Source: Escherichia coli
GTDB lineage: Bacteria > Pseudomonadota > Gammaproteobacteria > Enterobacterales > Enterobacteriaceae
NCBI RefSeq assembly: GCF_024700885.2
Contig: NZ_CP117016.1
Direction: 5' to 3' (one strand)
Length of the DNA: 64,000 nt
Every line of letters starts with the position of its first letter. Within the stretch, counting starts at the first letter, position 1. The notes under the pieces were generated by a model. The model had not been told where the DNA came from and ran no database searches. It saw only the letters and a program-made list of their open reading frames with translations. The position numbers were made by a program, and so were the translations under genes. Positions 36,689 to 54,212 of the stretch are shown in pieces.

Positions 36689-36964
36689 GTGGCTTCTGTT
36701 TCTATCAGCTGTCCCTCCTGTTCAGCTACTGACGGGGTGGTGCGTAACGGCAAAAGCACCGCCGGACATCAGCGCTATCTCTGCTCTCACTGCCGTAAAA
36801 CATGGCAACTGCAGTTCACTTACACCGCTTCTCAACCCGGTACGCACCAGAAAATCATTGATATGGCCATGAATGGCGTTGGATGCCGGGCAACTGCCCG
36901 CATTATGGGCGTTGGCCTCAACACGATTTTACGTCACTTAAAAAACTCAGGCCGCAGTCGGTAA
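36689..36964 (+). CDS. insA: IS1 InsA (transposition inhibitor / N-terminal part of InsAB' transposase)
   Basis: 91-aa [43 protein letters not shown] (zinc-finger CxxC...CxxC). Confidence 0.9.
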
Positions 36965-37386
36965 CCTCGCGCATACAGCCGGGCAGTGACGTCATCGTCT
37001 GCGCGGAAATGGACGAACAGTGGGGCTATGTCGGGGCTAAATCGCGCCAGCGCTGGCTGTTTTACGCGTATGACAGTCTCCGGAAGACGGTTGTTGCGCA
37101 CGTATTCGGTGAACGCACTATGGCGACGCTGGGGCGTCTTATGAGCCTGCTGTCACCCTTTGACGTGGTGATATGGATGACGGATGGCTGGCCGCTGTAT
37201 GAATCCCGCCTGAAGGGAAAGCTGCACGTAATCAGCAAGCGATATACGCAGCGAATTGAGCGGCATAACCTGAATCTGAGGCAGCACCTGGCACGGCTGG
37301 GACGGAAGTCGCTGTCGTTCTCAAAATCGGTGGAGCTGCATGACAAAGTCATCGGGCATTATCTGAACATAAAACACTATCAATAA
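36883..37386 (+). CDS. insB: IS1 InsB frame (expressed as InsAB' transposase by -1 frameshift)
   Basis: ORF in the -1 frame relative to insA; slippery A6C motif at 36940-36946 inside the insA/insB overlap. Confidence 0.85.
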
Positions 37387-37638: not shown

Positions 37639-37712
37639 TGGAGCGGGCGAAGGGAATCGAACCCTCGTATAGAGCTTGGGAAGCTCTCGTTCTACCATTG
37701 AACTACGCCCGC
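37639..37712 (-). tRNA. glyU: tRNA-Gly (anticodon CCC)
   Basis: Minus strand reads GCGGGCGTAGTTCAATGGTAGAACGAGAGCTTCCCAAGCTCTATACGAGGGTTCGATTCCCTTCGCCCGCTCCA; cloverleaf with anticodon CCC and encoded CCA end. Confidence 0.9.
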
Positions 37713-41266: not shown

Positions 41267-42145
41267 ATGTTTGATTTTGCTTCTTACCATCGCGCAGCAA
41301 CCCTTGCCGATGCCATCAACCTGCTGGCTGACAACCCACAGGCCAAACTGCTCGCCGGTGGCACTGACGTACTGATTCAGCTCCACCATCACAATGACCG
41401 TTATCGCCATATTGTTGATATTCATAATCTGGCGGAGCTGCGGGGAATTACGCTAGCGGAAGATGGCTCACTACGTATCGGCTCTGCAACGACATTTACC
41501 CAGCTCATTGAAGATCCTGTAACTCAACGTCATCTCCCAGCGTTATGTGCTGCGGCCTCGTCCATTGCCGGACCGCAGATCCGTAACGTCGCTACCTACG
41601 GTGGAAATATTTGCAACGGTGCTACCAGTGCAGATTCTGCCACGCCAACGCTAATTTATGACGCGAAACTGGAGATTCACTCCCCGCGCGGTGTTCGTTT
41701 CGTCCCGATTAATGGCTTTCACACTGGGCCGGGCAAAGTGTCTCTTGAGCATGACGAAATCCTTGTCGCCTTTCATTTTCCGCCCCAGCCGAAAGAACAC
41801 GCGGGCAGCGCGCATTTTAAATATGCCATGCGCGACGCAATGGATATTTCAACGATTGGCTGCGCCGCACATTGCCGACTGGATAACGGCAATTTCAGCG
41901 AATTACGCCTGGCATTTGGTGTTGCCGCGCCAACGCCAATTCGCTGCCAACATGCCGAACAGACTGCACAAAATGCGCCATTAAACCTGCAAACACTGGA
42001 AGCCATCAGCGAATCAGTCCTGCAAGATGTCGCCCCGCGTTCTTCATGGCGGGCCAGTAAAGAGTTTCGTCTGCATCTCATCCAGACGATGACCAAAAAA
42101 GTGATTAGCGAAGCCGTCGCCGCGGCGGGGGGAAAATTGCAATGA
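41267..42145 (+). CDS. xdhB: Xanthine dehydrogenase FAD-binding subunit
   Basis: 292-aa CO dehydrogenase flavoprotein-like ORF (GGTDVL motif); overlaps xdhC start (ATGA). Confidence 0.95.
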
Positions 42146-42621
42146 ATCACAGCGAAACAATCACCATCGAATGCACCATTAACGGGATGCCTTTTCAGCT
42201 TCACGCCGCACCAGGCACGCCGCTCTCGGAATTACTCCGCGAACAAGGACTGCTAAGTGTCAAACAAGGGTGCTGCGTGGGTGAATGTGGTGCCTGTACG
42301 GTGCTGGTCGACGGCACAGCAATAGACAGTTGCTTATACCTTGCCGCCTGGGCTGAAGGAAAAGAGATCCGCACGCTGGAAGGTGAAGCGAAAGGCGGAA
42401 AACTTTCTCATGTACAGCAGGCTTATGCTAAATCCGGCGCAGTGCAGTGCGGGTTTTGTACGCCTGGCCTGATTATGGCTACCACAGCAATGCTGGCGAA
42501 ACCACGCGAGAAGCCATTAACCATTACGGAAATTCGTCGCGGACTGGCGGGAAATCTTTGTCGCTGCACGGGGTATCAGATGATTGTAAATACAGTTCTG
42601 GATTGCGAGAAAACGAAGTAA
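42142..42621 (+). CDS. xdhC: Xanthine dehydrogenase [2Fe-2S] subunit
   Basis: 159-aa ORF with both 2Fe-2S cysteine motifs ([11 protein letters not shown] ... QCGFCTPG ... CRCTGY). Confidence 0.95.
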
Positions 42622-42628
42622 AAGGATA

Positions 42629-42650
42629 TCCGGCCTGAATTCAGGCCGGA
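42629..42650. terminator. Palindromic hairpin between convergent xdhC and ygeV
   Basis: TCCGGCCTG-AATT-CAGGCCGGA; on the minus strand followed by a U-rich tract, so mainly a ygeV terminator, possibly bidirectional. Confidence 0.55.
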
Positions 42651-42660
42651 TTCACTGAGG

Positions 42661-44439
42661 TTATGTGTTTAACAACTCATATTTCTTAATCTTGCGATAG
42701 AGCGTAGCAATGCCGATGCCCAGTTCATCAGCAACTTGCTTCTTGCTGTTATGACGTGAAAGCGCCTCGCGGATCATTTGCTTTTCCATCTCCTCCAGCG
42801 CCGTGCCGCCCGCATCATCGAGTGCCAGGTGCGCCTCGTTGACCTCTGTTACATCACTTTGCTCCGTTGTGCCATTATTCAGCAGATTTGGCGGCAATAG
42901 CGTGCTGTCGATAACTTCACCTGAAGGAACCACGTTAACCAGATATTCCATCAAATTGCTTAACTCGCGCAGGTTTCCGGGCCAACGATGCTTACGCAAT
43001 ATTTCGACGACATCGGGAGCAATGCCCGGATAAACCGATCCCAGACGACGGGTATGCAGATGTAAAAAGTAATGCACCAGTAGTTCAATATCTTCCTGAC
43101 GTTCACGCAGCGGTGGCAGAGTTATCGGGATAACATTAAGTCGGTAGAAGAGATCTTCGCGGAATTTACCTTCGGCAATGAACTGGGCCAAATTCTGGTT
43201 AGTTGCAGAAATGATGCGAATGTCGACTTGTATTGGGCTACTGGCACCAATCGGCAGAATTTCACGCGCCTCAATAGCGCGCAGTAATTTAGCCTGCAAC
43301 ATTAATGGCATATCACCTATTTCATCGAGAAACAGCGTGCCCGTATTCGCCGCCTGAATCAACCCTGTTTTACCGTTGGCAGAAGCGCCAGTAAATGCGC
43401 CTTTAACATAACCGAACAGTTCGCTCTCCAGAAGCTGCTCCGGAATCGCGGCACAGTTGATAGCAATAAAGGGTTTATTCCGTCTTCCGCTCAACTTATG
43501 GATTGCACGGGCGACAACTTCTTTACCCGTGCCGCTTTCACCAACCACCATAACGCTGGATGGGCTGGGTGCAATACGGCTAATGAGTCGTTTTAATTGC
43601 CGCATAACACGGCACTCGCCAACCAATTGTTCAATATGCGGTTCATCAGGTGCATTTGCTACAGAAAAACTGGTATGCGATTGGTGAAACGCCATTAAAA
43701 ATAATTGTCGGCCCTGAATGTTATGCAATTGACCAATGATTAATTCACTTTTATCGTCCCACGAAACAATATGCTGCATATGTCCATGGGTAAAATTACT
43801 CTCAAATGTTAATGGTCTGAAACGGATAGGTTTCCCAATAATATTATTTTGTACAACACCAAGTGTTTTTAAGGCAGTCTGATTAACAAACTGAATCCGA
43901 TTATCGTCATCAACAACTAATACACCCTGATCCATATTATCGATCATGGTCGCGAATATTTTACTGATGTTATCTCCTGGTCCCTGATCCTCCAGAAGTT
44001 TCGAAACAAAAATGGTGGATATATGGCGAACGTAATCAGAAAATTCGCGTAAATTATCACTAATATGCTCTTGTTGCTCGTGGGTAACGGCAATCAAACT
44101 TATCACCCCAACACAACGATCCTGTAAAATGACAGGCGTACCCAGAAATGCTTTTTCGCGGCAATTTTCTTTACTATCGCAACCTTCGCAAAGGGGATCG
44201 AAGCGAGACTGTGTCACAACTTTTTCAGTTTTCGTTTCCAGGACGTGGCGGAGCAGGCGTGAGTTGCCGCTCAACTGGCGACCAAGAAACTTCCCATACG
44301 CGCCCGTTCCGGCGACGCGACACAAGTTTTCATCAACGATCTCAACCTCAAGCTGCAAAACGCTGGCAAGCATTCTGGCAAAACGCTGAATTGTCGGTTG
44401 AATTTGCATCAATACTGACTGCGTAGTAGCAAGCTCCAT
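42661..44439 (-). CDS. ygeV: Sigma54-dependent transcriptional activator (bacterial enhancer-binding protein)
   Basis: 592-aa ORF with AAA+ sigma54 interaction domain: Walker A GESGTGKE, GAFTGA motif (KGAFTGA), ESELFGY, and C-terminal HTH. Confidence 0.9.
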   Translation of the reverse strand: MELATTQSVLMQIQPTIQRFARMLASVLQLEVEIVDENLCRVAGTGAYGKFLGRQLSGNSRLLRHVLETKTEKVVTQSRFDPLCEGCDSKENCREKAFLGTPVILQDRCVGVISLIAVTHEQQEHISDNLREFSDYVRHISTIFVSKLLEDQGPGDNISKIFATMIDNMDQGVLVVDDDNRIQFVNQTALKTLGVVQNNIIGKPIRFRPLTFESNFTHGHMQHIVSWDDKSELIIGQLHNIQGRQLFLMAFHQSHTSFSVANAPDEPHIEQLVGECRVMRQLKRLISRIAPSPSSVMVVGESGTGKEVVARAIHKLSGRRNKPFIAINCAAIPEQLLESELFGYVKGAFTGASANGKTGLIQAANTGTLFLDEIGDMPLMLQAKLLRAIEAREILPIGASSPIQVDIRIISATNQNLAQFIAEGKFREDLFYRLNVIPITLPPLRERQEDIELLVHYFLHLHTRRLGSVYPGIAPDVVEILRKHRWPGNLRELSNLMEYLVNVVPSGEVIDSTLLPPNLLNNGTTEQSDVTEVNEAHLALDDAGGTALEEMEKQMIREALSRHNSKKQVADELGIGIATLYRKIKKYELLNT

Positions 44440-44808
44440 AGCTTTACCTTCCAGACTTACTTAAAAGTCGATCATTGAAGACGTTGATGGTTCACAGATC
44501 ATGATGATATTAACTCAGGCGAAATTGGCTTTGATAAAAACATAAGATTTTTATCACTTTCTAATGAAATTATGGAAGAGATATCACATTTCTATATCAA
44601 TATGAGAATTACGGCGGTGAGTTTATCAAACTGAAGAGAGAGCGCCTGTTCCTTTATCTTATTTCTGATACTTAGCAGCAAATAAATAACGCGATAAAAA
44701 AAGCCAAACGTTTTCGTATTTTACAAACAACCAGAAGCTGGCATCAATTTGTGATCAACCCCACACATTACCCGTCAAATTAGTCTTTTGCAGCCGCTTG
44801 GATAATTC

Positions 44809-44824
44809 TGGCATAGTTATTGTT
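44809..44824 (+). promoter_or_regulatory. Weak candidate sigma54 promoter upstream of ygeW
   Basis: TGGCATA-GTTA-TTGT: -24 element good, -12 is GT rather than GC; TGATAA/TTATCA-type repeats further upstream (44531-44633). Confidence 0.3.
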
Positions 44825-44915
44825 AGTCCCAGGTATAGCTGTGAAAAGACCAATCACTTTTGGCAAGTCACAGTGAAATAAACCTCTTTGCCTGTCATTC
44901 CACTACCGGGACTTT

Positions 44916-46106
44916 ATGATGAAAACTGTTAATGAGCTGATTAAGGATATCAATTCGCTGACCTCTCACCTTCACGAGAAAGATTTTTTGTTAACGTGGG
45001 AACAGACGCCAGATGAACTGAAACAAGTACTGGACGTTGCCGCAGCATTAAAAGCACTGCGTGCTGAAAACATCTCAACCAAAGTCTTTAATAGTGGATT
45101 AGGTATTTCCGTATTCCGCGACAACTCCACCCGTACCCGTTTCTCTTATGCTTCCGCGCTTAACCTGCTCGGCCTTGCACAGCAAGATCTCGACGAAGGC
45201 AAATCACAAATCGCTCACGGCGAAACCGTGCGTGAAACCGCCAATATGATCTCCTTCTGCGCCGATGCCATCGGTATTCGTGACGATATGTATCTGGGCG
45301 CAGGCAACGCCTATATGCGTGAAGTTGGCGCTGCACTTGATGACGGTTACAAGCAGGGTGTGCTGCCGCAACGTCCGGCTTTAGTGAACCTGCAATGCGA
45401 TATTGACCACCCGACTCAGTCAATGGCTGACCTGGCATGGTTACGTGAACACTTTGGTTCACTGGAAAACCTGAAAGGTAAAAAAATCGCCATGACCTGG
45501 GCCTACTCCCCAAGCTATGGCAAACCGCTCTCTGTACCACAAGGCATCATCGGTCTGATGACTCGCTTCGGTATGGATGTCACCCTGGCCCATCCGGAAG
45601 GCTACGACCTGATCCCGGATGTCGTTGAAGTCGCTAAAAACAATGCTAAAGCCTCCGGCGGTAGCTTCCGTCAGGTCACCAGCATGGAAGAAGCCTTCAA
45701 AGACGCAGACATCGTTTATCCGAAGTCATGGGCACCTTACAAAGTGATGGAAGAGCGTACTGAATTGCTGCGTGCGAACGATCACGAAGGCTTAAAAGCA
45801 CTGGAAAAACAGTGTCTGGCACAGAACGCGCAACACAAAGACTGGCATTGTACTGAAGAGATGATGGAACTGACCCGTGATGGCGAAGCCCTGTACATGC
45901 ACTGCCTGCCAGCTGATATCAGCGGCGTATCCTGCAAAGAAGGTGAAGTGACTGAAGGCGTATTCGAAAAATACCGTATCGCGACCTACAAAGAAGCCAG
46001 CTGGAAGCCTTATATCATCGCCGCGATGATCCTGTCCCGCAAATACGCCAAACCAGGTGCACTGCTCGAGCAACTGCTGAAAGAAGCGCAAGAACGCGTG
46101 AAATAA
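44916..46106 (+). CDS. ygeW: Carbamoyltransferase-family protein (ATCase/OTCase fold)
   Basis: 396-aa ORF with carbamoyl-phosphate binding STRTR motif (DNSTRTRFSYASA). Confidence 0.9.
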   Translation: MMKTVNELIKDINSLTSHLHEKDFLLTWEQTPDELKQVLDVAAALKALRAENISTKVFNSGLGISVFRDNSTRTRFSYASALNLLGLAQQDLDEGKSQIAHGETVRETANMISFCADAIGIRDDMYLGAGNAYMREVGAALDDGYKQGVLPQRPALVNLQCDIDHPTQSMADLAWLREHFGSLENLKGKKIAMTWAYSPSYGKPLSVPQGIIGLMTRFGMDVTLAHPEGYDLIPDVVEVAKNNAKASGGSFRQVTSMEEAFKDADIVYPKSWAPYKVMEERTELLRANDHEGLKALEKQCLAQNAQHKDWHCTEEMMELTRDGEALYMHCLPADISGVSCKEGEVTEGVFEKYRIATYKEASWKPYIIAAMILSRKYAKPGALLEQLLKEAQERVK

Positions 46107-46163
46107 CCCCTCGGGCCGATCAGCTGGTCGGCCCTCTATTTCCAGAGGCCAAAAGGATAGGAT

Positions 46164-47360
46164 ATGTCCGTTTTCTCATTGAAGATTGATATCGCCGATA
46201 ACAAATTTTTCAACGGCGAAACATCACCGCTCTTTTCGCAAAGCCAGGCCAAACTGGCGCGCCAGTTCCACCAGAAAATTGCTGGTTATCGCCCAACACC
46301 GCTTTGTGCGCTGGACGATCTCGCAAACCTTTTTGGTGTGAAGAAAATTCTCGTCAAAGACGAATCAAAACGATTCGGTCTGAACGCCTTCAAAATGCTC
46401 GGCGGTGCGTACGCCATCGCTCAATTATTGTGTGAAAAATATCATCTTGATATCGAAACGCTGTCATTTGAGCATCTGAAAAATGCCATCGGCGAAAAAA
46501 TGACCTTCGCGACCACCACCGACGGCAACCACGGGCGCGGTGTGGCATGGGCAGCACAGCAACTCGGACAGAATGCGGTGATTTACATGCCGAAAGGTTC
46601 TGCTCAGGAACGCGTTGACGCCATTCTGAACCTCGGTGCCGAGTGCATCGTCACGGATATGAACTATGACGATACCGTTCGCCTGACCATGCAACACGCG
46701 CAGCAGCACGGCTGGGAAGTGGTGCAAGATACCGCCTGGGAAGGTTACACCAAAATCCCAACCTGGATCATGCAGGGCTATGCAACACTGGCAGATGAAG
46801 CCGTCGAGCAAATGCGTGAAATGGGCGTAACCCCGACGCACGTTCTGCTGCAAGCTGGTGTCGGTGCAATGGCCGGTGGTGTGCTGGGTTATCTGGTCGA
46901 CGTCTATAGCCCGCAAAATCTGCACAGCATTATTGTTGAACCTGACAAAGCTGACTGTATTTATCGCTCCGGCGTCAAAGGCGACATCGTCAACGTTGGC
47001 GGTGATATGGCCACCATCATGGCGGGCCTGGCCTGCGGCGAACCTAACCCGCTGGGCTGGGAAATCCTACGTAACTGCGCCACCCAATTCATCTCCTGCC
47101 AGGACAGTGTTGCCGCATTAGGTATGCGTGTGCTGGGTAATCCGTACGGCAATGACCCGCGCATCATCTCCGGTGAATCCGGCGCTGTCGGTTTGGGCGT
47201 TCTCGCAGCGGTTCATTATCACCCGCAACGTCAAAGCCTGATGGAAAAACTGGCGCTGAACAAAGATGCCGTAGTGCTGGTTATCAGCACTGAAGGCGAC
47301 ACAGACGTGAAGCACTACCGCGAAGTTGTCTGGGAAGGCAAACACGCTGTAGCACCTTAA
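46164..47360 (+). CDS. ygeX: PLP-dependent 2,3-diaminopropionate ammonia-lyase
   Basis: 398-aa fold-type II PLP enzyme ORF. Confidence 0.9.
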   Translation: MSVFSLKIDIADNKFFNGETSPLFSQSQAKLARQFHQKIAGYRPTPLCALDDLANLFGVKKILVKDESKRFGLNAFKMLGGAYAIAQLLCEKYHLDIETLSFEHLKNAIGEKMTFATTTDGNHGRGVAWAAQQLGQNAVIYMPKGSAQERVDAILNLGAECIVTDMNYDDTVRLTMQHAQQHGWEVVQDTAWEGYTKIPTWIMQGYATLADEAVEQMREMGVTPTHVLLQAGVGAMAGGVLGYLVDVYSPQNLHSIIVEPDKADCIYRSGVKGDIVNVGGDMATIMAGLACGEPNPLGWEILRNCATQFISCQDSVAALGMRVLGNPYGNDPRIISGESGAVGLGVLAAVHYHPQRQSLMEKLALNKDAVVLVISTEGDTDVKHYREVVWEGKHAVAP

Positions 47361-47417
47361 TCACCCTATTGGAACTGCTCCCTGCAAAACGGGGAGTAAA
47401 AAATCTGGAGAAAAATA

Positions 47418-48629
47418 ATGGCTAAGAATATTCCATTCAAACTGATTCTTGAAAAAGCAAAAGATTACCAGGCGGACATGACTCGCTTCCTGCGCGACAT
47501 GGTTGCTATTCCCAGTGAAAGCTGCGACGAAAAACGCGTAGTACATCGTATTAAAGAAGAGATGGAAAAAGTCGGCTTCGATAAAGTTGAAATCGACCCG
47601 ATGGGCAACGTTCTCGGTTATATCGGCCACGGCCCGCGTCTGGTGGCAATGGACGCTCATATTGATACCGTCGGCATTGGCAACATCAAAAACTGGGACT
47701 TCGATCCGTACGAAGGCATGGAAACTGATGAGCTGATCGGTGGTCGCGGTACTTCCGACCAGGAAGGCGGCATGGCATCTATGGTTTATGCCGGTAAAAT
47801 CATTAAAGACCTCGGTCTGGAAGATGAATATACCCTGCTGGTTACCGGTACTGTGCAGGAAGAAGACTGCGACGGTCTGTGCTGGCAGTACATTATTGAA
47901 CAATCCGGCATTCGCCCGGAATTTGTGGTCAGTACCGAACCAACCGACTGCCAGGTATACCGTGGTCAGCGCGGTCGTATGGAAATTCGTATTGATGTTC
48001 AGGGTGTTAGCTGCCACGGTTCTGCGCCAGAACGCGGTGACAACGCCATTTTCAAAATGGGTCCGATTCTTGGCGAATTACAAGAACTCTCCCAACGTCT
48101 GGGTTATGACGAATTCCTCGGCAAAGGCACCCTCACCGTTTCTGAAATCTTCTTCACATCCCCAAGCCGTTGCGCTGTAGCAGATAGCTGCGCCGTCTCT
48201 ATTGACCGCCGTCTGACCTGGGGCGAAACCTGGGAAGGCGCGCTGGACGAAATCCGCGCCCTGCCTGCAGTACAGAAAGCTAACGCGGTTGTTTCTATGT
48301 ACAACTACGACCGTCCGTCCTGGACTGGCCTGGTTTACCCAACCGAATGCTACTTCCCGACCTGGAAAGTGGAAGAAGATCACTTCACCGTTAAAGCACT
48401 GGTGAATGCCTACGAAGGTCTGTTTGGCAAAGCGCCGGTTGTTGATAAGTGGACCTTCTCAACTAACGGCGTATCTATCATGGGCCGTCACGGCATTCCG
48501 GTGATCGGCTTTGGCCCAGGTAAAGAACCTGAAGCGCATGCACCTAACGAAAAAACCTGGAAATCTCACCTGGTGACCTGTGCCGCGATGTACGCGGCAA
48601 TCCCGTTAAGCTGGCTGGCAACCGAATAA
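47418..48629 (+). CDS. ygeY: M20-family peptidase / deacylase
   Basis: 403-aa ORF of the ArgE/DapE/M20 family. Confidence 0.9.
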
Positions 48630-48646
48630 TTACTCTTCACTTATTC

Positions 48647-48671
48647 CCCTCCGGTTCGCCGGAGGGTTTTT
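48647..48671 (+). terminator. Intrinsic terminator / attenuator between ygeY and hyuA
   Basis: Stem CCCTCCGG / CCGGAGGG with UUCG tetraloop followed by T5 (48667-48671), 11 nt before the hyuA ATG. Confidence 0.6.
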
Positions 48672-48681
48672 GGAGTTTGCT

Positions 48682-50067
48682 ATGCGCGTATTGATCAAAA
48701 ACGGCACTGTCGTTAACGCAGATGGACAAGCCAAACAGGATTTGCTGATTGAAAGCGGGATTGTTCGCCAGTTGGGCAACAATATTTCGCCACAGCTCCC
48801 GTATGAAGAAATTGATGCCACTGGCTGTTACGTTTTCCCTGGCGGCGTGGATGTCCATACGCATTTCAATATTGATGTCGGCATCGCGCGCAGTTGTGAT
48901 GATTTTTTTACCGGTACCCGCGCAGCTGCGTGTGGCGGTACAACAACCATTATTGACCATATGGGATTTGGCCCGAATGGCTGCCGGTTACGCCATCAAC
49001 TGGAGGTTTATCGTGGTTATGCCGCCCATAAGGCGGTCATCGACTACAGCTTTCACGGTGTGATCCAGCACATTAATCACGCCATCCTCGACGAAATTCC
49101 GATGATGGTCGAAGAAGGACTGAGCAGTTTTAAACTCTATTTAACCTATCAATACAAACTCAACGATGACGAAGTTTTGCAGGCGTTACGCCGCTTGCAT
49201 GAGTCCGGCGCGCTGACCACCGTGCACCCGGAAAATGATGCAGCTATCGCCAGCAAGCGGGCGGAGTTTATTGCCGCAGGGTTAACCGCGCCGCGCTATC
49301 ACGCCTTGAGTCGCCCTCTGGAATGCGAAGCGGAAGCCATCGCCCGCATGATTAACCTGGCACAAATTGCCGGTAACGCCCCGCTCTATATCGTGCACCT
49401 GTCTAACGGCTTAGGTCTGGATTATCTGCGTCTTGCCCGTGCGAATCACCAGCCAGTCTGGGTTGAAACCTGCCCACAATATCTCCTGTTGGACGAACGC
49501 AGTTACGATACAGAAGATGGCATGAAGTTCATTCTTAGCCCACCGCTGCGTAACGTACGCGAGCAGGACAAACTGTGGTGTGGCATCAGCGATGGTGCGA
49601 TTGACGTGGTAGCGACCGATCACTGCACATTCTCGATGGCTCAACGCCTGCAAATTTCTAAAGGCGATTTCAGTCGCTGCCCAAATGGCTTACCCGGTGT
49701 GGAAAACCGCATGCAGTTACTGTTTTCCAGTGGCGTTATGACGGGACGTATAACACCGGAACGTTTTGTTGAATTAACCAGCGCGATGCCCGCCAGGCTG
49801 TTTGGCCTGTGGCCGCAAAAAGGATTATTAGCGCCCGGTTCCGATGGCGACGTGGTGATTATCGACCCACGTCAGAGTCAACAAATTCAGCATCGCCATC
49901 TCCACGACAACGCCGACTACTCGCCATGGGAGGGTTTTACCTGTCAGGGCGCGATTGTCAGAACTTTATCCCGTGGTGAAACGATTTTCTGTGACGGCAC
50001 TTTTACAGGCAAAGCCGGGCGAGGTCGTTTCCTGCGACGCAAACCGTTTGTCCCTCCCGTGCTCTAA
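48682..50067 (+). CDS. hyuA: D-hydantoinase / dihydropyrimidinase-family amidohydrolase
   Basis: ORF track frame opens at 48670 (TTG); ATG at 48682 with GGAG RBS; metal-binding DVHTHF motif. Confidence 0.9.
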   Translation: MRVLIKNGTVVNADGQAKQDLLIESGIVRQLGNNISPQLPYEEIDATGCYVFPGGVDVHTHFNIDVGIARSCDDFFTGTRAAACGGTTTIIDHMGFGPNGCRLRHQLEVYRGYAAHKAVIDYSFHGVIQHINHAILDEIPMMVEEGLSSFKLYLTYQYKLNDDEVLQALRRLHESGALTTVHPENDAAIASKRAEFIAAGLTAPRYHALSRPLECEAEAIARMINLAQIAGNAPLYIVHLSNGLGLDYLRLARANHQPVWVETCPQYLLLDERSYDTEDGMKFILSPPLRNVREQDKLWCGISDGAIDVVATDHCTFSMAQRLQISKGDFSRCPNGLPGVENRMQLLFSSGVMTGRITPERFVELTSAMPARLFGLWPQKGLLAPGSDGDVVIIDPRQSQQIQHRHLHDNADYSPWEGFTCQGAIVRTLSRGETIFCDGTFTGKAGRGRFLRRKPFVPPVL

Positions 50068-50114
50068 CCACTGCCAAGGATCTATACACAATCAAGAATG
50101 ATGAGTGAGGAAAA

Positions 50115-51047
50115 ATGAGTAAGAAAATTGTTCTCGCCCTGGGCGGGAATGCGCTGGGCGACGATCTGGCCGGGCAAATGAAAGCGGTAAAAATTACTTC
50201 TCAGGCAATTGTTGATTTAATTGCCCAGGGACATGAGGTCATCGTCACTCACGGTAACGGGCCACAGGTGGGCATGATTAACCAGGCCTTTGAAGCTGCC
50301 GCAAAAACTGAAGCGCACTCGCCAATGCTGCCGATGTCTGTCTGTGTTGCCTTAAGCCAGGGTTATATTGGTTACGATCTACAAAACGCATTAAGAGAAG
50401 AACTGCTTTCTCGTGGCATTAATAAACCTGTAGCAACGCTGGTTACCCAGGTCGAAGTCGATGCTAACGACCCGGCATTCCTCAACCCGACCAAACCGAT
50501 CGGTTCGTTCTTTACCGAGCAAGAAGCAGAGCAACTGACAAAACAGGGTTACACTCTGAAAGAAGATGCTGGTCGCGGCTATCGCCGTGTTGTTGCCTCG
50601 CCAAAACCGGTTGATATCATTGAAAAAGAAACGGTTAAAGCGTTGGTAGATGCAGGCCAGGTGGTGATCACCGTTGGCGGTGGTGGTATCCCTGTTATTC
50701 GTGAAGGTAACCACCTGCGTGGTGCCAGTGCGGTTATCGATAAAGACTGGGCCAGCGCCCGTTTAGCAGAAATGATTGATGCCGATATGCTGATCATTCT
50801 GACTGCGGTAGAAAAAGTGGCCATTAACTTCGGTAAAGAGAATGAACAGTGGCTCGATCGCCTGTCATTAAGTGATGCTGAACGCTTTATCGAAGAAGGT
50901 CATTTTGCGAAAGGTTCTATGCTGCCTAAAGTGGAAGCTGCCGCCTCGTTTGCTCGCTCTCGCGCAGGTCGTGAAGCACTGATTACCGTATTGAGCAAAG
51001 CGAAAGAAGGGATTGAAGGCAAAACCGGAACGGTGATTTGTCAGTAA
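50115..51047 (+). CDS. yqeA: Carbamate kinase-like protein
   Basis: 310-aa amino-acid kinase family ORF (MSKKIVLALGGNAL). Confidence 0.9.
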   Translation: MSKKIVLALGGNALGDDLAGQMKAVKITSQAIVDLIAQGHEVIVTHGNGPQVGMINQAFEAAAKTEAHSPMLPMSVCVALSQGYIGYDLQNALREELLSRGINKPVATLVTQVEVDANDPAFLNPTKPIGSFFTEQEAEQLTKQGYTLKEDAGRGYRRVVASPKPVDIIEKETVKALVDAGQVVITVGGGGIPVIREGNHLRGASAVIDKDWASARLAEMIDADMLIILTAVEKVAINFGKENEQWLDRLSLSDAERFIEEGHFAKGSMLPKVEAAASFARSRAGREALITVLSKAKEGIEGKTGTVICQ

Positions 51048-51087
51048 TTAAAAGGCCGGGTGGGTAATACCATCCGGCCATTTTCAT

Positions 51088-52713
51088 TTAAGCCACTTCC
51101 AGCACTTCTTTTGTCGCTTTCACGCCCTGATGCATCAACATCATTAACGCCTCAAGTACGCCGCCGCCAATTGCCCGGGCTTTATCAGAAACGCTGGTGA
51201 AATCAGCCGTTTCACCACGAGGATCGATATCACCAATTTTAAAACCACCGACCACTGCTAGTCCGTCGTTCAACAAGCCACGCACCATCCCCGTCAACGG
51301 TGCTTTAATTTCATGCTCACCAATCCAGGCAATCACATCGCCCTCTTTCACCAGATCGCCTAATTTCACGTTGGATCGCATAATGCCTGCAGCAGGAGCA
51401 CGGATCACCCGTCGGGTGGTATGCCCCATAATATTGCTAGGAACACCGGTATTCTCCTGCGCACAACCAGAGTAAATCACCTGACCGAGCCAGTGCCCGC
51501 GATTTGTTTCAATTACCGCATGACAATCCTTCCCTGCAATAAAGCCCGGCCCAAGCGCGATTGTTACTGGTGCCATATCTGCCCGCGTCCCCAAATTCTG
51601 TTTCGCCAGAATAGCGTCCACCACGCAAAGCGGTTTCAGTTCATCAAGCAATGAACAGGCGGGATCTACCATCACAGGGATGAATCCGCGTTCGGTAAGT
51701 TTCATCGCTTCCGCAGAGCTGGTTGCCAGGCGGGCAGTGACGCCTTCGACCGTCATTTCGCCATCGAACACGGCCTGGGCAAACGCCACGGTACAACGAA
51801 TCACTGTCGGTTTTTCCACTTCCAGCATGATCACTTTAAAACCCGCATGATACAGACGTAGCGCCACACCACTGGCGATATCCCCCGCACCGCGAATCAC
51901 CACCAGCTGGTGTCCGGAAGGATGAGAAGGTTTCATCATCAGCCCACCCGGCGCGTTATTTTTCACCTGTAATATTTCTGCCAGCACGCTGATGGCGATC
52001 TCCTGCGGCGTTTCCGCACCTATGTTGTAACCAACGGGCGCATGTAAACGGGCAATATGTTCTTCAGCCACGCCTTTCTCACGCAATTGACGCAGGAAAA
52101 GCTGAACCTTGCGGCGACTTGCCAGCAACCCCAGCCATGCAATGGGCTGTTCAATGAGTTTGTCGAGGGCTTCACGATCCTGATTATTCGTGGCAATCAG
52201 GACAAAATTATCAGGGCGAATATCCAGTGCTTCCACTGCCGCACCAAACGACTCAGCATGGAGAAGCGTGGTTGATGGTGGGAATAATTCAGGATTGAGG
52301 CTTTCGCGATAAATATCGGCAACGGCAATATCAAATCCTAATAGCGCCGCACTCTGGGCTATCGCCCGGTTGACATGCCCCGCGCCAATCAACACCAGAC
52401 GTGGACGCATACCATGGACGCTGATAAATACGGACATTGCACCTCCACAATCTGACCCGACAGCATCCGCACCGTTACGAGCCATACGTCCATGGAATAA
52501 TCGCGGCTTACGTTCCTGCAATGCCTGAAGCGACTCTTCAATCACCTTCCGCTCAACCATTCCGCCACCAATTGTACCGACGATAGAGCCATCGGCGCGC
52601 ACTAACATTTGTGCAGAATGGCGGGGAGTCGAGCCTCGGCTATCAACAATTTGCGCCATCGCAAACGGACAATTTTGCTCTTCGAGTTTTGCAGCCTCTG
52701 TGAAAATATTCAT
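51088..52713 (-). CDS. yqeB: XdhC/CoxI-family molybdoenzyme maturation protein
   Basis: 541-aa ORF with Rossmann-like GxGxxG segments (LIGAGHV, IRGAGDIASG). Confidence 0.85.
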   Translation of the reverse strand: MNIFTEAAKLEEQNCPFAMAQIVDSRGSTPRHSAQMLVRADGSIVGTIGGGMVERKVIEESLQALQERKPRLFHGRMARNGADAVGSDCGGAMSVFISVHGMRPRLVLIGAGHVNRAIAQSAALLGFDIAVADIYRESLNPELFPPSTTLLHAESFGAAVEALDIRPDNFVLIATNNQDREALDKLIEQPIAWLGLLASRRKVQLFLRQLREKGVAEEHIARLHAPVGYNIGAETPQEIAISVLAEILQVKNNAPGGLMMKPSHPSGHQLVVIRGAGDIASGVALRLYHAGFKVIMLEVEKPTVIRCTVAFAQAVFDGEMTVEGVTARLATSSAEAMKLTERGFIPVMVDPACSLLDELKPLCVVDAILAKQNLGTRADMAPVTIALGPGFIAGKDCHAVIETNRGHWLGQVIYSGCAQENTGVPSNIMGHTTRRVIRAPAAGIMRSNVKLGDLVKEGDVIAWIGEHEIKAPLTGMVRGLLNDGLAVVGGFKIGDIDPRGETADFTSVSDKARAIGGGVLEALMMLMHQGVKATKEVLEVA

Positions 52714-52760
52714 ACCAACCTCAATGGATATCCTTTCAGTAACCCGGAATACCCGGGCCG

Positions 52761-53531
52761 CTAATTCACAAATCTGCGCGCGATTGCAGGATGTTCTTGT
52801 ATATCGCCCAGCCAGATTGCCTCTACGTCGTGTTGTTGCAGCGGTTGAAGGAGCTCGCTTTGTGCAATCGCATTCTCACATTGAGAAAAACGGTTAATGA
52901 ACCAGACTCGCCGACAACCTTGCGGTACGTTTTTAAATGCGCCCTGAGGGTGGCGAACCAGCGCAACGAGATCGCTCAGTTGCAAGGTTGCATCAGGTGT
53001 TAACCCGGTAATATCAGCAAACTGCGACCAGCGATGGACATTTTCTGTGCTCACTTTCGCGCCCAAAATATGTCCTCCCATCACAGCAATCACGCAGCAA
53101 CTGCTTTTGGGTATGCAAGGTTCGTGCTCATCAGGCGCTTTTAACGTCATTCCACGCGAGCCATCTGCCTCAATGAGAATTACGTCACACTCTGGTCGTT
53201 GCACCAGTGCATCAATCGCTTCTGGCGTAAATCCCTGCACTTTTCCCTGGTTCGCTTTCCAGCTGTGAAAACAAAATGAAATGGGGGATGTAAGAGACGC
53301 ATGAGGAAGCATGGCGGGATCACGACAGAAAACCACGGGCCAGTGAGACGTTGGCATAAACATATGTGTCGTCGTAGTGATTAACACACGCCTGCCGCTA
53401 GCCTGGAGCAGTTCTGCCAGCCAAAAAAGCAAGCTGGTTTTCCCCCCAGCCCCAACAACAGAAATCACAGTGGGACGTTTCTGCGCGCCTAAATCAATGA
53501 ATAATGCCGATGGGTCAACTATACTTTTCAC
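52761..53531 (-). CDS. yqeC: P-loop NTPase-like accessory protein (selenium-dependent molybdenum hydroxylase marker)
   Basis: 256-aa ORF with Walker A VVGAGGKTS. Confidence 0.85.
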   Translation of the reverse strand: MKSIVDPSALFIDLGAQKRPTVISVVGAGGKTSLLFWLAELLQASGRRVLITTTTHMFMPTSHWPVVFCRDPAMLPHASLTSPISFCFHSWKANQGKVQGFTPEAIDALVQRPECDVILIEADGSRGMTLKAPDEHEPCIPKSSCCVIAVMGGHILGAKVSTENVHRWSQFADITGLTPDATLQLSDLVALVRHPQGAFKNVPQGCRRVWFINRFSQCENAIAQSELLQPLQQHDVEAIWLGDIQEHPAIARRFVN

Positions 53532-53633
53532 GAGTCTTTATGACCTCTCTGGGATAAATTATCCCCAACTTAATCCATCAGGAAGTAACGCAATTATCAG
53601 GCGTTATTAGCCCCTATAAATAATGGAACCACT

Positions 53634-54212
53634 ATGTCAGCCATCGACTGTATAATTACCGCTGCCGGATTATCATCAAGAATGGGGCAATGGAAAATGA
53701 TGTTACCCTGGCAACAGGGAACAATTCTTGATACAAGTATCAAAAATGCGTTGCAGTTTTGTAGCCGAATTATTTTAGTCACCGGCTATCGTGGTAATGA
53801 ACTGCACGAGCGTTATGCGAACCAGAGCAATATCACTATTATCCACAACCCAGATTATGCGCAGGGTTTACTAACATCAGTAAAGGCCGCAGTACCCGCG
53901 GTAAAAACAGAATATTGTTTTCTCACCCACGGTGACATGCCTACCCTCACCATCGATATTTTTAGAAAAATCTGGTCGTTACGAAATGATGGCGCAATAC
54001 TGCCACTCCATAATGGCATTCCCGGCCATCCGATTTTAGTGTCAAAGCCATGCCTGATGCAGGCAATCCAGCGTCCCAATATCACCAATATGCGTCAGGC
54101 ACTCCTTATGGGAGATCATTATTCCGTCGAAATAGAAAATGCAGAAATAATTTTAGATATTGATACTCCGGACGACTTTATTACAGCGCAAAAAAGGTAT
54201 ACTAAAATTTAG
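53634..54212 (+). CDS. mocA: Molybdenum cofactor cytidylyltransferase (MobA-like NTP transferase)
   Basis: 192-aa ORF MSAIDCIITAAGLSSRMG (nucleotidyltransferase G-rich loop). Confidence 0.85.
   Translation: MSAIDCIITAAGLSSRMGQWKMMLPWQQGTILDTSIKNALQFCSRIILVTGYRGNELHERYANQSNITIIHNPDYAQGLLTSVKAAVPAVKTEYCFLTHGDMPTLTIDIFRKIWSLRNDGAILPLHNGIPGHPILVSKPCLMQAIQRPNITNMRQALLMGDHYSVEIENAEIILDIDTPDDFITAQKRYTKI

Follow-up and report, generated by a model that had tools for sequence, protein, structure and literature searches.

The five co-directional genes ygeW-ygeX-ygeY-hyuA-yqeA of Escherichia coli, located at 44916-51047 of a window of 64,000 nucleotides (the whole stretch of DNA analysed; contig NZ_CP117016.1, assembly GCF_024700885.2), are the lower half of the anaerobic (reductive, 2,8-dioxopurine) pathway of uric acid degradation. 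They are read here, with a probability of about 0.85, as a single urate operon that depends on sigma-54 and on the activator YgeV, that recovers ATP through the carbamoyltransferase YgeW and the carbamate kinase YqeA, and whose hairpin between ygeY and hyuA is at most a leaky terminator or a protector of 3' ends. The ATP recovery was also proposed in a first-pass annotation of this DNA made from the sequence alone. It is correct but already known, since it was demonstrated experimentally in 2025.

The biochemical evidence comes from the enzymes of strain K-12. Recombinant YgeW and YqeA, incubated together with 2,3-diureidopropanoate, ADP and Mg, converted the substrate and formed substantial ATP (Liu et al., bioRxiv 10.1101/2025.04.24.650524). 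Neither enzyme alone gave such ATP formation, both being needed, and YgeW was stimulated by YqeA, probably via the consumption of carbamoyl phosphate (same study). The other steps were reconstituted by Li et al. (Life Metab 2025, PMC12507026): ring opening of ureidomethyl-hydantoin by HyuA, loss of one ureido group through YgeW in the presence of phosphate, and conversion of the YgeW product to pyruvate by YgeY and YgeX. The roles that the first-pass annotation gave to these enzymes (phosphorolysis of a ureido intermediate by YgeW and YqeA, ring opening by HyuA, removal of a carbamoyl group by YgeY, deamination by YgeX) thus agree with experiment. Its candidate substrate, carbamoyl-diaminopropionate, was close, but the true substrate is 2,3-diureidopropionate, and the pathway had been left unnamed. 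A bioinformatic paper of 2013 had already tied ygeW-yqeA to purine catabolism and to pairs of carbamoyltransferases and carbamate kinases.

The following sequence of reactions rests on the published work with the K-12 enzymes; in the window, the steps are assigned by similarity. HyuA would hydrolyse the ring of 5-ureidomethyl-hydantoin to 2,3-diureidopropionate. YgeW would then split off one of the two ureido groups with phosphate, releasing carbamoyl phosphate and leaving a mono-ureido-diaminopropionate. YqeA would move the phosphate of carbamoyl phosphate to ADP (substrate-level phosphorylation, one ATP per urate) and would also pull the unfavourable YgeW reaction forward. The second ureido group would be hydrolysed by YgeY, giving 2,3-diaminopropionate, which YgeX would turn into pyruvate and ammonia.

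Assignment of a protein to a family required a score above the curated cut-off of an NCBIfam equivalog model; all five proteins pass (scores are given in the table). YgeW lies far under the cut-offs of the other carbamoyltransferases (score/cut-off in bits: ornithine carbamoyltransferase, OTC, 133/281; acetylornithine carbamoyltransferase, 129/288; putrescine carbamoyltransferase, 108/500; aspartate carbamoyltransferase, 75/263) and is nearly identical to chain 3q98_A, the solved structure of E. coli YgeW (a match of 395 residues at 896 bits). It carries the STRTR motif noticed in the first-pass annotation (carbamoyl-phosphate-binding S-x-R-T-R; residues 71-75, 45126-45140) and the active-site motifs HPTQ (residue 165) and HCLP (residue 329). 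"Knotted", as a putative feature of YgeW, is a label taken from the family name. YqeA, previously called carbamate-kinase-like, does exceed the cut-off of the carbamate kinase model TIGR00746, and it aligns essentially end to end with the solved carbamate kinases 1b7b, 2we4 and 2we5 (305 bits over residues 1-296). YgeX is nearly identical over its full length to PDB entry 4d9g (912 bits), and its translation has, within the motif NAFK, Lys77, which we take from the work on 4d9g to be the lysine that binds pyridoxal 5'-phosphate (PLP). The full length of HyuA can be aligned with D-hydantoinases. Its DVHTHF metal site (HxH) is present as annotated (residues 57-62, 48850-48867), and in a comparison with 1yny the FKLY, VHPEN, VHLS and TDHC stretches are kept as well; these presumably hold the Lys, His, His and Asp ligands of the binuclear metal site. 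No close solved structure was found for YgeY.

The order of the five genes is widely kept. Relatives were collected by a scan with YgeY, one genome per species, which gave 80 loci; ygeW-ygeX-ygeY-hyuA-yqeA was found in about 70 species-level loci of Enterobacterales, Aeromonas, Vibrionaceae, Shewanella and Ferrimonas. In Vibrionaceae, Shewanella and Ferrimonas (loci L061-L081), the gene that follows hyuA encodes a carbamate kinase of another subfamily (NF009008 type), about 40% identical to YqeA (e.g. L068:11078-11743, compared with 50115-51047 of the window), while YgeW, YgeX, YgeY and HyuA are still 62-85% identical. The slot for a kinase has thus been retained though the kinase lineage was exchanged, and this retention provides independent comparative support for the coupling of YgeW to a kinase. 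In five betaproteobacterial loci (L049, L056, L059, L074 and L076; Accumulibacter, Rhodocyclaceae, Rubrivivax, Ideonella), ygeY comes straight after ygeW, with no intervening ygeX.

The spacer of 476 nt between the divergent genes ygeV and ygeW contains a sigma-54-type -24/-12 element, TGGCAT-N5-TTGTT, which was found by a relaxed, conservation-based search. Its -12 part is TTGT and not the consensus TTGC; a scan for TGGCAC-N5-TTGCA that allowed two mismatches misses the element because the site has three. Among 74 related loci, 38 have the pattern YTGGCAY-N5-TTGTT at a distance of 83-126 nt upstream of ygeW; one more locus has it at -228 (39/74). The adjacent gene, ygeV, encodes a sigma-54 enhancer-binding protein and adjoins ygeW in most related loci; the published YgeV iModulon includes ygeW, ygeX, ygeY and hyuA. 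Because the element is conserved, ygeV is adjacent and four genes belong to this iModulon, 44809-44824 is probably the sigma-54 promoter of the operon. Transcription would start at this element and would run through three intercistronic hairpins.

Two TGTGA-N6-TCACA-like sites (44750-44765 and about 44570-44585) are found at positions conserved in Enterobacterales, about -173 and -350 from the ATG of ygeW. They could be CRP sites or upstream activating sites for YgeV. A native Crp site in the ygeV-ygeW spacer and the repression of urate degradation by glucose have been reported (Li et al.). A perfect inverted repeat, TGATAAAAA-N7-TTTTTATCA (44532-44556, about 95 nt upstream of the ygeV start), was considered as a binding site of YgeV and not adopted; it is conserved in just 7 of 61 related spacers.

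The hairpin that the first-pass annotation placed between ygeY and hyuA is present, at exactly 48647-48671. It consists of an 8-bp stem in which seven pairs are G-C, a loop of UUCG and the tail UUUUU (-15.6 kcal/mol for the hairpin alone), and so has the form of an intrinsic terminator: G+C-rich stem, short loop, U-tract immediately 3'. The Shine-Dalgarno sequence of hyuA (GGAG) is directly downstream. Neither the arms nor the T5 vary among five diverse strains of E. coli, changes being confined to the loop and the flanks. A crude terminator scan was not enriched overall (12 sites versus 9.0 +/- 3.3 in shuffles); the three sites richest in G-C pairs all lie within short intergenic spacers. Comparable hairpins follow ygeW and ygeX, and a bidirectional terminator follows yqeA, none of which the first-pass annotation mentions; no hairpin was found in the hyuA-yqeA spacer of the window.

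In the relatives, hairpins were counted per distinct spacer at <= -8 kcal/mol and compared with shuffles, a count that shows enrichment of structure and is not a formal covariation test. Enrichment was found at all four junctions: ygeW-ygeX, 56/69 spacers (10.6 expected; mean folding z -2.3); ygeX-ygeY, 37/64 (5.8 expected; z -1.3); ygeY-hyuA, 62/76 (14.4 expected; z -2.8); hyuA-yqeA, 13/39 (3.4 expected; z -0.2). The whole spacer folds better than shuffles after ygeW and after ygeY, not after hyuA, and the hyuA-yqeA spacer is just 0-12 nt long in many relatives. Of the hairpins after ygeW, ygeX and ygeY, the post-ygeX one is the less conserved. The arm sequences are diverse: 52 distinct ones among the ygeY-hyuA stems and 43 among the post-ygeW hairpins. 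In Enterobacteriaceae, the ygeY-hyuA stem stops 12-16 nt short of the start codon of hyuA, just 5' of GGAG/GAGG. At ygeY-hyuA, what is conserved, as judged by these comparisons, is therefore structure and position rather than sequence. An alignment of 30 ygeY-hyuA spacers (MAFFT and RNAalifold) did not bring the stems into register, so that its consensus (6 pairs, -0.8 kcal/mol) is meaningless.

The U-tract is not conserved together with the ygeY-hyuA hairpin. At least four T in the next 8 nt are found after 26 of 62 post-ygeY hairpins, 9 of 57 post-ygeW hairpins and none of 37 post-ygeX hairpins. Since only 26 of the 62 have a T-rich tail, the stem-loop itself is the conserved feature; the upstream spacer sequence is not conserved. 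Typical tails in Enterobacteriaceae are TCTGGAGT or TTCTGAGG, while E. coli, Morganella and some others have a U-rich tail (5-6 of 8). The hairpin at 48647-48671 is therefore best taken as a probable leaky terminator in E. coli and, more generally, as a putative protector of 3' ends or of processing, or RNA-stability element, because most relatives have no U-tract, no antiterminator was found and there is no promoter near hyuA. It would let the ygeW-ygeX-ygeY message outlast or outnumber the hyuA-yqeA message. Substantial read-through is expected, because hyuA is co-expressed with ygeW, ygeX and ygeY, because HyuA acts upstream of YgeW, and because neither a promoter-like site in the spacer nor an antiterminator fold was found.

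The alternative that survives best is that none of the three hairpins terminates transcription at all, each being purely an element of RNA stability or processing, or an insulator that keeps the downstream Shine-Dalgarno sequence accessible. The retention of structure with so many arm sequences, the rarity of the U-tract at the three junctions and the position of the Enterobacteriaceae stem next to the Shine-Dalgarno sequence of hyuA all fit this explanation, but the U-rich tails of E. coli, Morganella and some others have the classical form of a terminator, and we regard it as possible without favouring it. It is unlikely that 48647-48671 is an efficient terminator and that ygeW-ygeX-ygeY and hyuA-yqeA are two units, the latter with its own promoter inside ygeY. 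The G+C-rich stem, the UUCG loop and the five U, together with the invariance of arms and T-tract in E. coli, are what such a terminator would need; against it, no promoter-like site was seen in the ygeY-hyuA spacer of 52 nt, ygeY itself has a single, weak sigma-70-like match (47772-47800) and the matches of the region are no more numerous than in shuffles, no sigma-54 element is found near hyuA in a scan for TGGCAC-N5-TTGCA, hyuA shares its iModulon with the three genes upstream, most relatives keep the hairpin and not the U-tract, and uncoupled expression would be counter-productive since the product of HyuA is the substrate of YgeW.

A regulated attenuator, switched by a metabolite, by a protein or by translation of ygeY, is more improbable still, although the hairpin does lie between genes for late steps and those for ring opening and ATP formation. 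In a fold of 141 nt (48560-48700) no competing antiterminator was found: the hairpin persists and stays in the centroid. An Rfam scan of 42000-54000 gave no match at E <= 1. The stop codon of ygeY ends 17 nt before the stem, so that a terminating ribosome should not melt it, and only the stem-loop, not the sequence upstream of it, is conserved. A role as regulated attenuator is thus not supported by these analyses, and the suggestion in the first-pass annotation of two transcriptional sub-units or of attenuation at this hairpin is not upheld. Least plausible of all is a biosynthetic YgeW that would carbamoylate a diaminopropionate derivative with carbamoyl phosphate provided by YqeA: the equilibrium of carbamoyltransferases favours carbamoylation (PMC4016543) and the YgeW product peak seen in vitro was small (Li et al.), but YgeW and YqeA made ATP from a ureido substrate (Liu et al.), the genes are induced by urate and required for its conversion to acetate, the neighbouring genes encode catabolic enzymes, Clostridioides difficile has a hydrolase in place of YgeW and YqeA (Li et al.), and published isotope tracing largely covers the in vivo net flux of carbon from urate to pyruvate by way of YgeW.

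Four points weigh against the reading as a single operon with a leaky hairpin and a settled pathway. The gene yqeA is missing from the printed list of the YgeV iModulon. The T5 is clean and the loop is UUCG, so that the hairpin could terminate efficiently in vitro. A literature search for ygeY together with terminator found no mention of one. Lastly, the ureido group that YgeW removes is disputed: the 3-ureido group according to Liu et al.; the 2-ureido group, giving albizziin, according to Li et al. Because the two studies disagree, the order of the pathway around YgeW and YgeY is not fully fixed, and a commentary of 2025 lists the regiochemistry of YgeW, hence the substrate of YgeY, among the unsettled questions. 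Removal of the 3-ureido group first, by analogy with the families (the nearest models of YgeW carbamoylate distal amines; those of YgeY are N-alpha-deacylases), was considered and dropped, since the co-elution with albizziin reported by Li et al. conflicts with it; no claim is made.

Table. Genes and predicted elements of the ygeW-yqeA region. Positions are those of the window. Scores: bits against NCBIfam models, with the curated cut-off in brackets.
Feature	Position	Strand	Description	Family model: score (cut-off)
ygeV	42661-44439	-	divergent sigma-54 enhancer-binding activator; RefSeq: sigma-54 interaction domain-containing protein	
CRP-like site TGTGATCAACCCCACA	44750-44765	+	candidate site for CRP or YgeV, about 170 nt 5' of the start of ygeW	
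Sigma-54-type -24/-12 element TGGCAT-N5-TTGTT	44809-44824	+	candidate promoter, about 110 nt upstream of ygeW; consensus match and adjacent ygeV	
ygeW	44916/44919-46106	+	knotted carbamoyltransferase (RefSeq)	NF005538: 825 (453); TIGR03316: 675 (500)
Post-ygeW hairpin	46113-46134	+	9-bp G+C-rich stem, weak U-tail	
ygeX (dpaL)	46164-47360	+	PLP-dependent 2,3-diaminopropionate ammonia-lyase (products: pyruvate + 2 NH3)	TIGR03528: 651 (532)
Post-ygeX hairpin	47376-47398	+	9-bp stem followed by an A-run, without U-tract; z = -2.79	
ygeY	47418-48629	+	M20 (ArgE/DapE-type) hydrolase; RefSeq: selenium metabolism-linked	TIGR03526: 721.6 (321.5); NF009555: 713.6 (321)
ygeY-hyuA hairpin	48647-48671	+	CCCTCCGG-TTCG-CCGGAGGG (48647-48666) + TTTTT (48667-48671)	
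hyuA	48682-50067	+	D-hydantoinase; RefSeq: D-phenylhydantoinase	TIGR02033: 675 (393)
yqeA (arcC)	50115-51047	+	carbamate kinase (carbamoyl phosphate + ADP to ATP + carbamate)	TIGR00746: 385.6 (358.25); NF009007: 382.7 (266)
yqeA/yqeB terminator	51054-51079	both	bidirectional, between the convergent genes yqeA and yqeB	

All five open reading frames are intact. The start of hyuA is the RefSeq ATG at 48682, with its GGAG 6 nt upstream; the in-frame TTG at 48670 is not taken as the start, since it lies inside the T-tract of the hairpin and is not the one annotated. At the other end of the operon, the yqeA/yqeB terminator folds at -22.6 kcal/mol on the + strand (z = -5.0) and at -17.1 kcal/mol on the - strand (z = -3.8), with T-runs on both sides. 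According to the RefSeq annotation, the upstream neighbours are the divergent ygeV and xdhABC; the downstream neighbours are the convergent yqeB-yqeC, then mocA and ygfK-ssnA-ygfM-xdhD.

The region 44916-51047 is 100% identical to 3085243-3091374 of E. coli SMS-3-5 (NC_010498.1). Of 5426 complete E. coli genomes, 5178 have a match to the operon, in most cases with 95-99% identity; one of the 5182 operon matches in complete E. coli assemblies is on a record labelled plasmid. Elsewhere in the window, an IS1A copy lies between yqeH and tRNA-Gly(CCC), directly before actS/ygeR (36689-37386 and 37639-37712). In K-12, remnants of the E. coli type III secretion system 2 (ETT2) island presumably sit at this yqeH-tRNA-Gly locus; in the window, the island appears to be largely absent from it.

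The operon described by Liu et al. and Li et al. in K-12 is the same operon in another strain. It has the same gene order and the same neighbours (ygeV, xdhABC, yqeBC, ygfK-ssnA-ygfM-xdhD); both strains share one RefSeq protein for YgeY, WP_001107125.1, YgeW and YgeX are nearly the same as the sequences of the K-12 crystal structures, and the only differences seen are strain-level substitutions. The arginine deiminase pathway (ArcA, ArcB, ArcC) follows the same logic, phosphorolysis of a ureido compound to carbamoyl phosphate and then ATP formation by carbamate kinase, a parallel drawn explicitly by Liu et al.; its substrate is citrulline and not 2,3-diureidopropionate, and YgeW scores far below the OTC cut-off. 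The same catabolic pairing with an adjacent kinase, serving the breakdown of purines or polyamines, is found in the ureidoglycine carbamoyltransferase and carbamate kinase of Rubrobacter xylanophilus and in the oxamate and putrescine routes. These involve other carbamoyltransferase subfamilies and other substrates (allantoate, oxalurate, carbamoylputrescine) and belong to the oxidative allantoin branch, in contrast to the reductive branch of the E. coli operon. The variant of C. difficile shares the steps on either side (HyuA, YgeY, YgeX), but the hydrolase UacY replaces YgeW and YqeA; this variant forgoes carbamoyl phosphate and ATP because UacY hydrolyses the ureido group irreversibly.

No new pathway-level biology is added here, because the significance of the operon is already established in published work. 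The details that are not described in the pathway papers are the conserved sigma-54 element, the three hairpins conserved in structure, and the swap of kinase lineage in Vibrionaceae and Shewanella. It is tentatively proposed that the hairpins after ygeW, ygeX and ygeY and the tight hyuA-yqeA junction may together act as a conserved layer of post-transcriptional control over enzyme ratios, an idea to which we give less than even odds. If this were true, the ygeW-ygeX-ygeY message would be stabilised, or transcription partly terminated before hyuA-yqeA, and more YgeW and YgeY would be made than HyuA and YqeA; the published reconstitution used YgeW and YgeY, which are slow enzymes, at ten times the concentration of HyuA. 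The operon itself lets gut bacteria ferment urate secreted by the host, gain ATP from it and lower the urate burden of the host, a property of interest for gout and for engineered probiotics.

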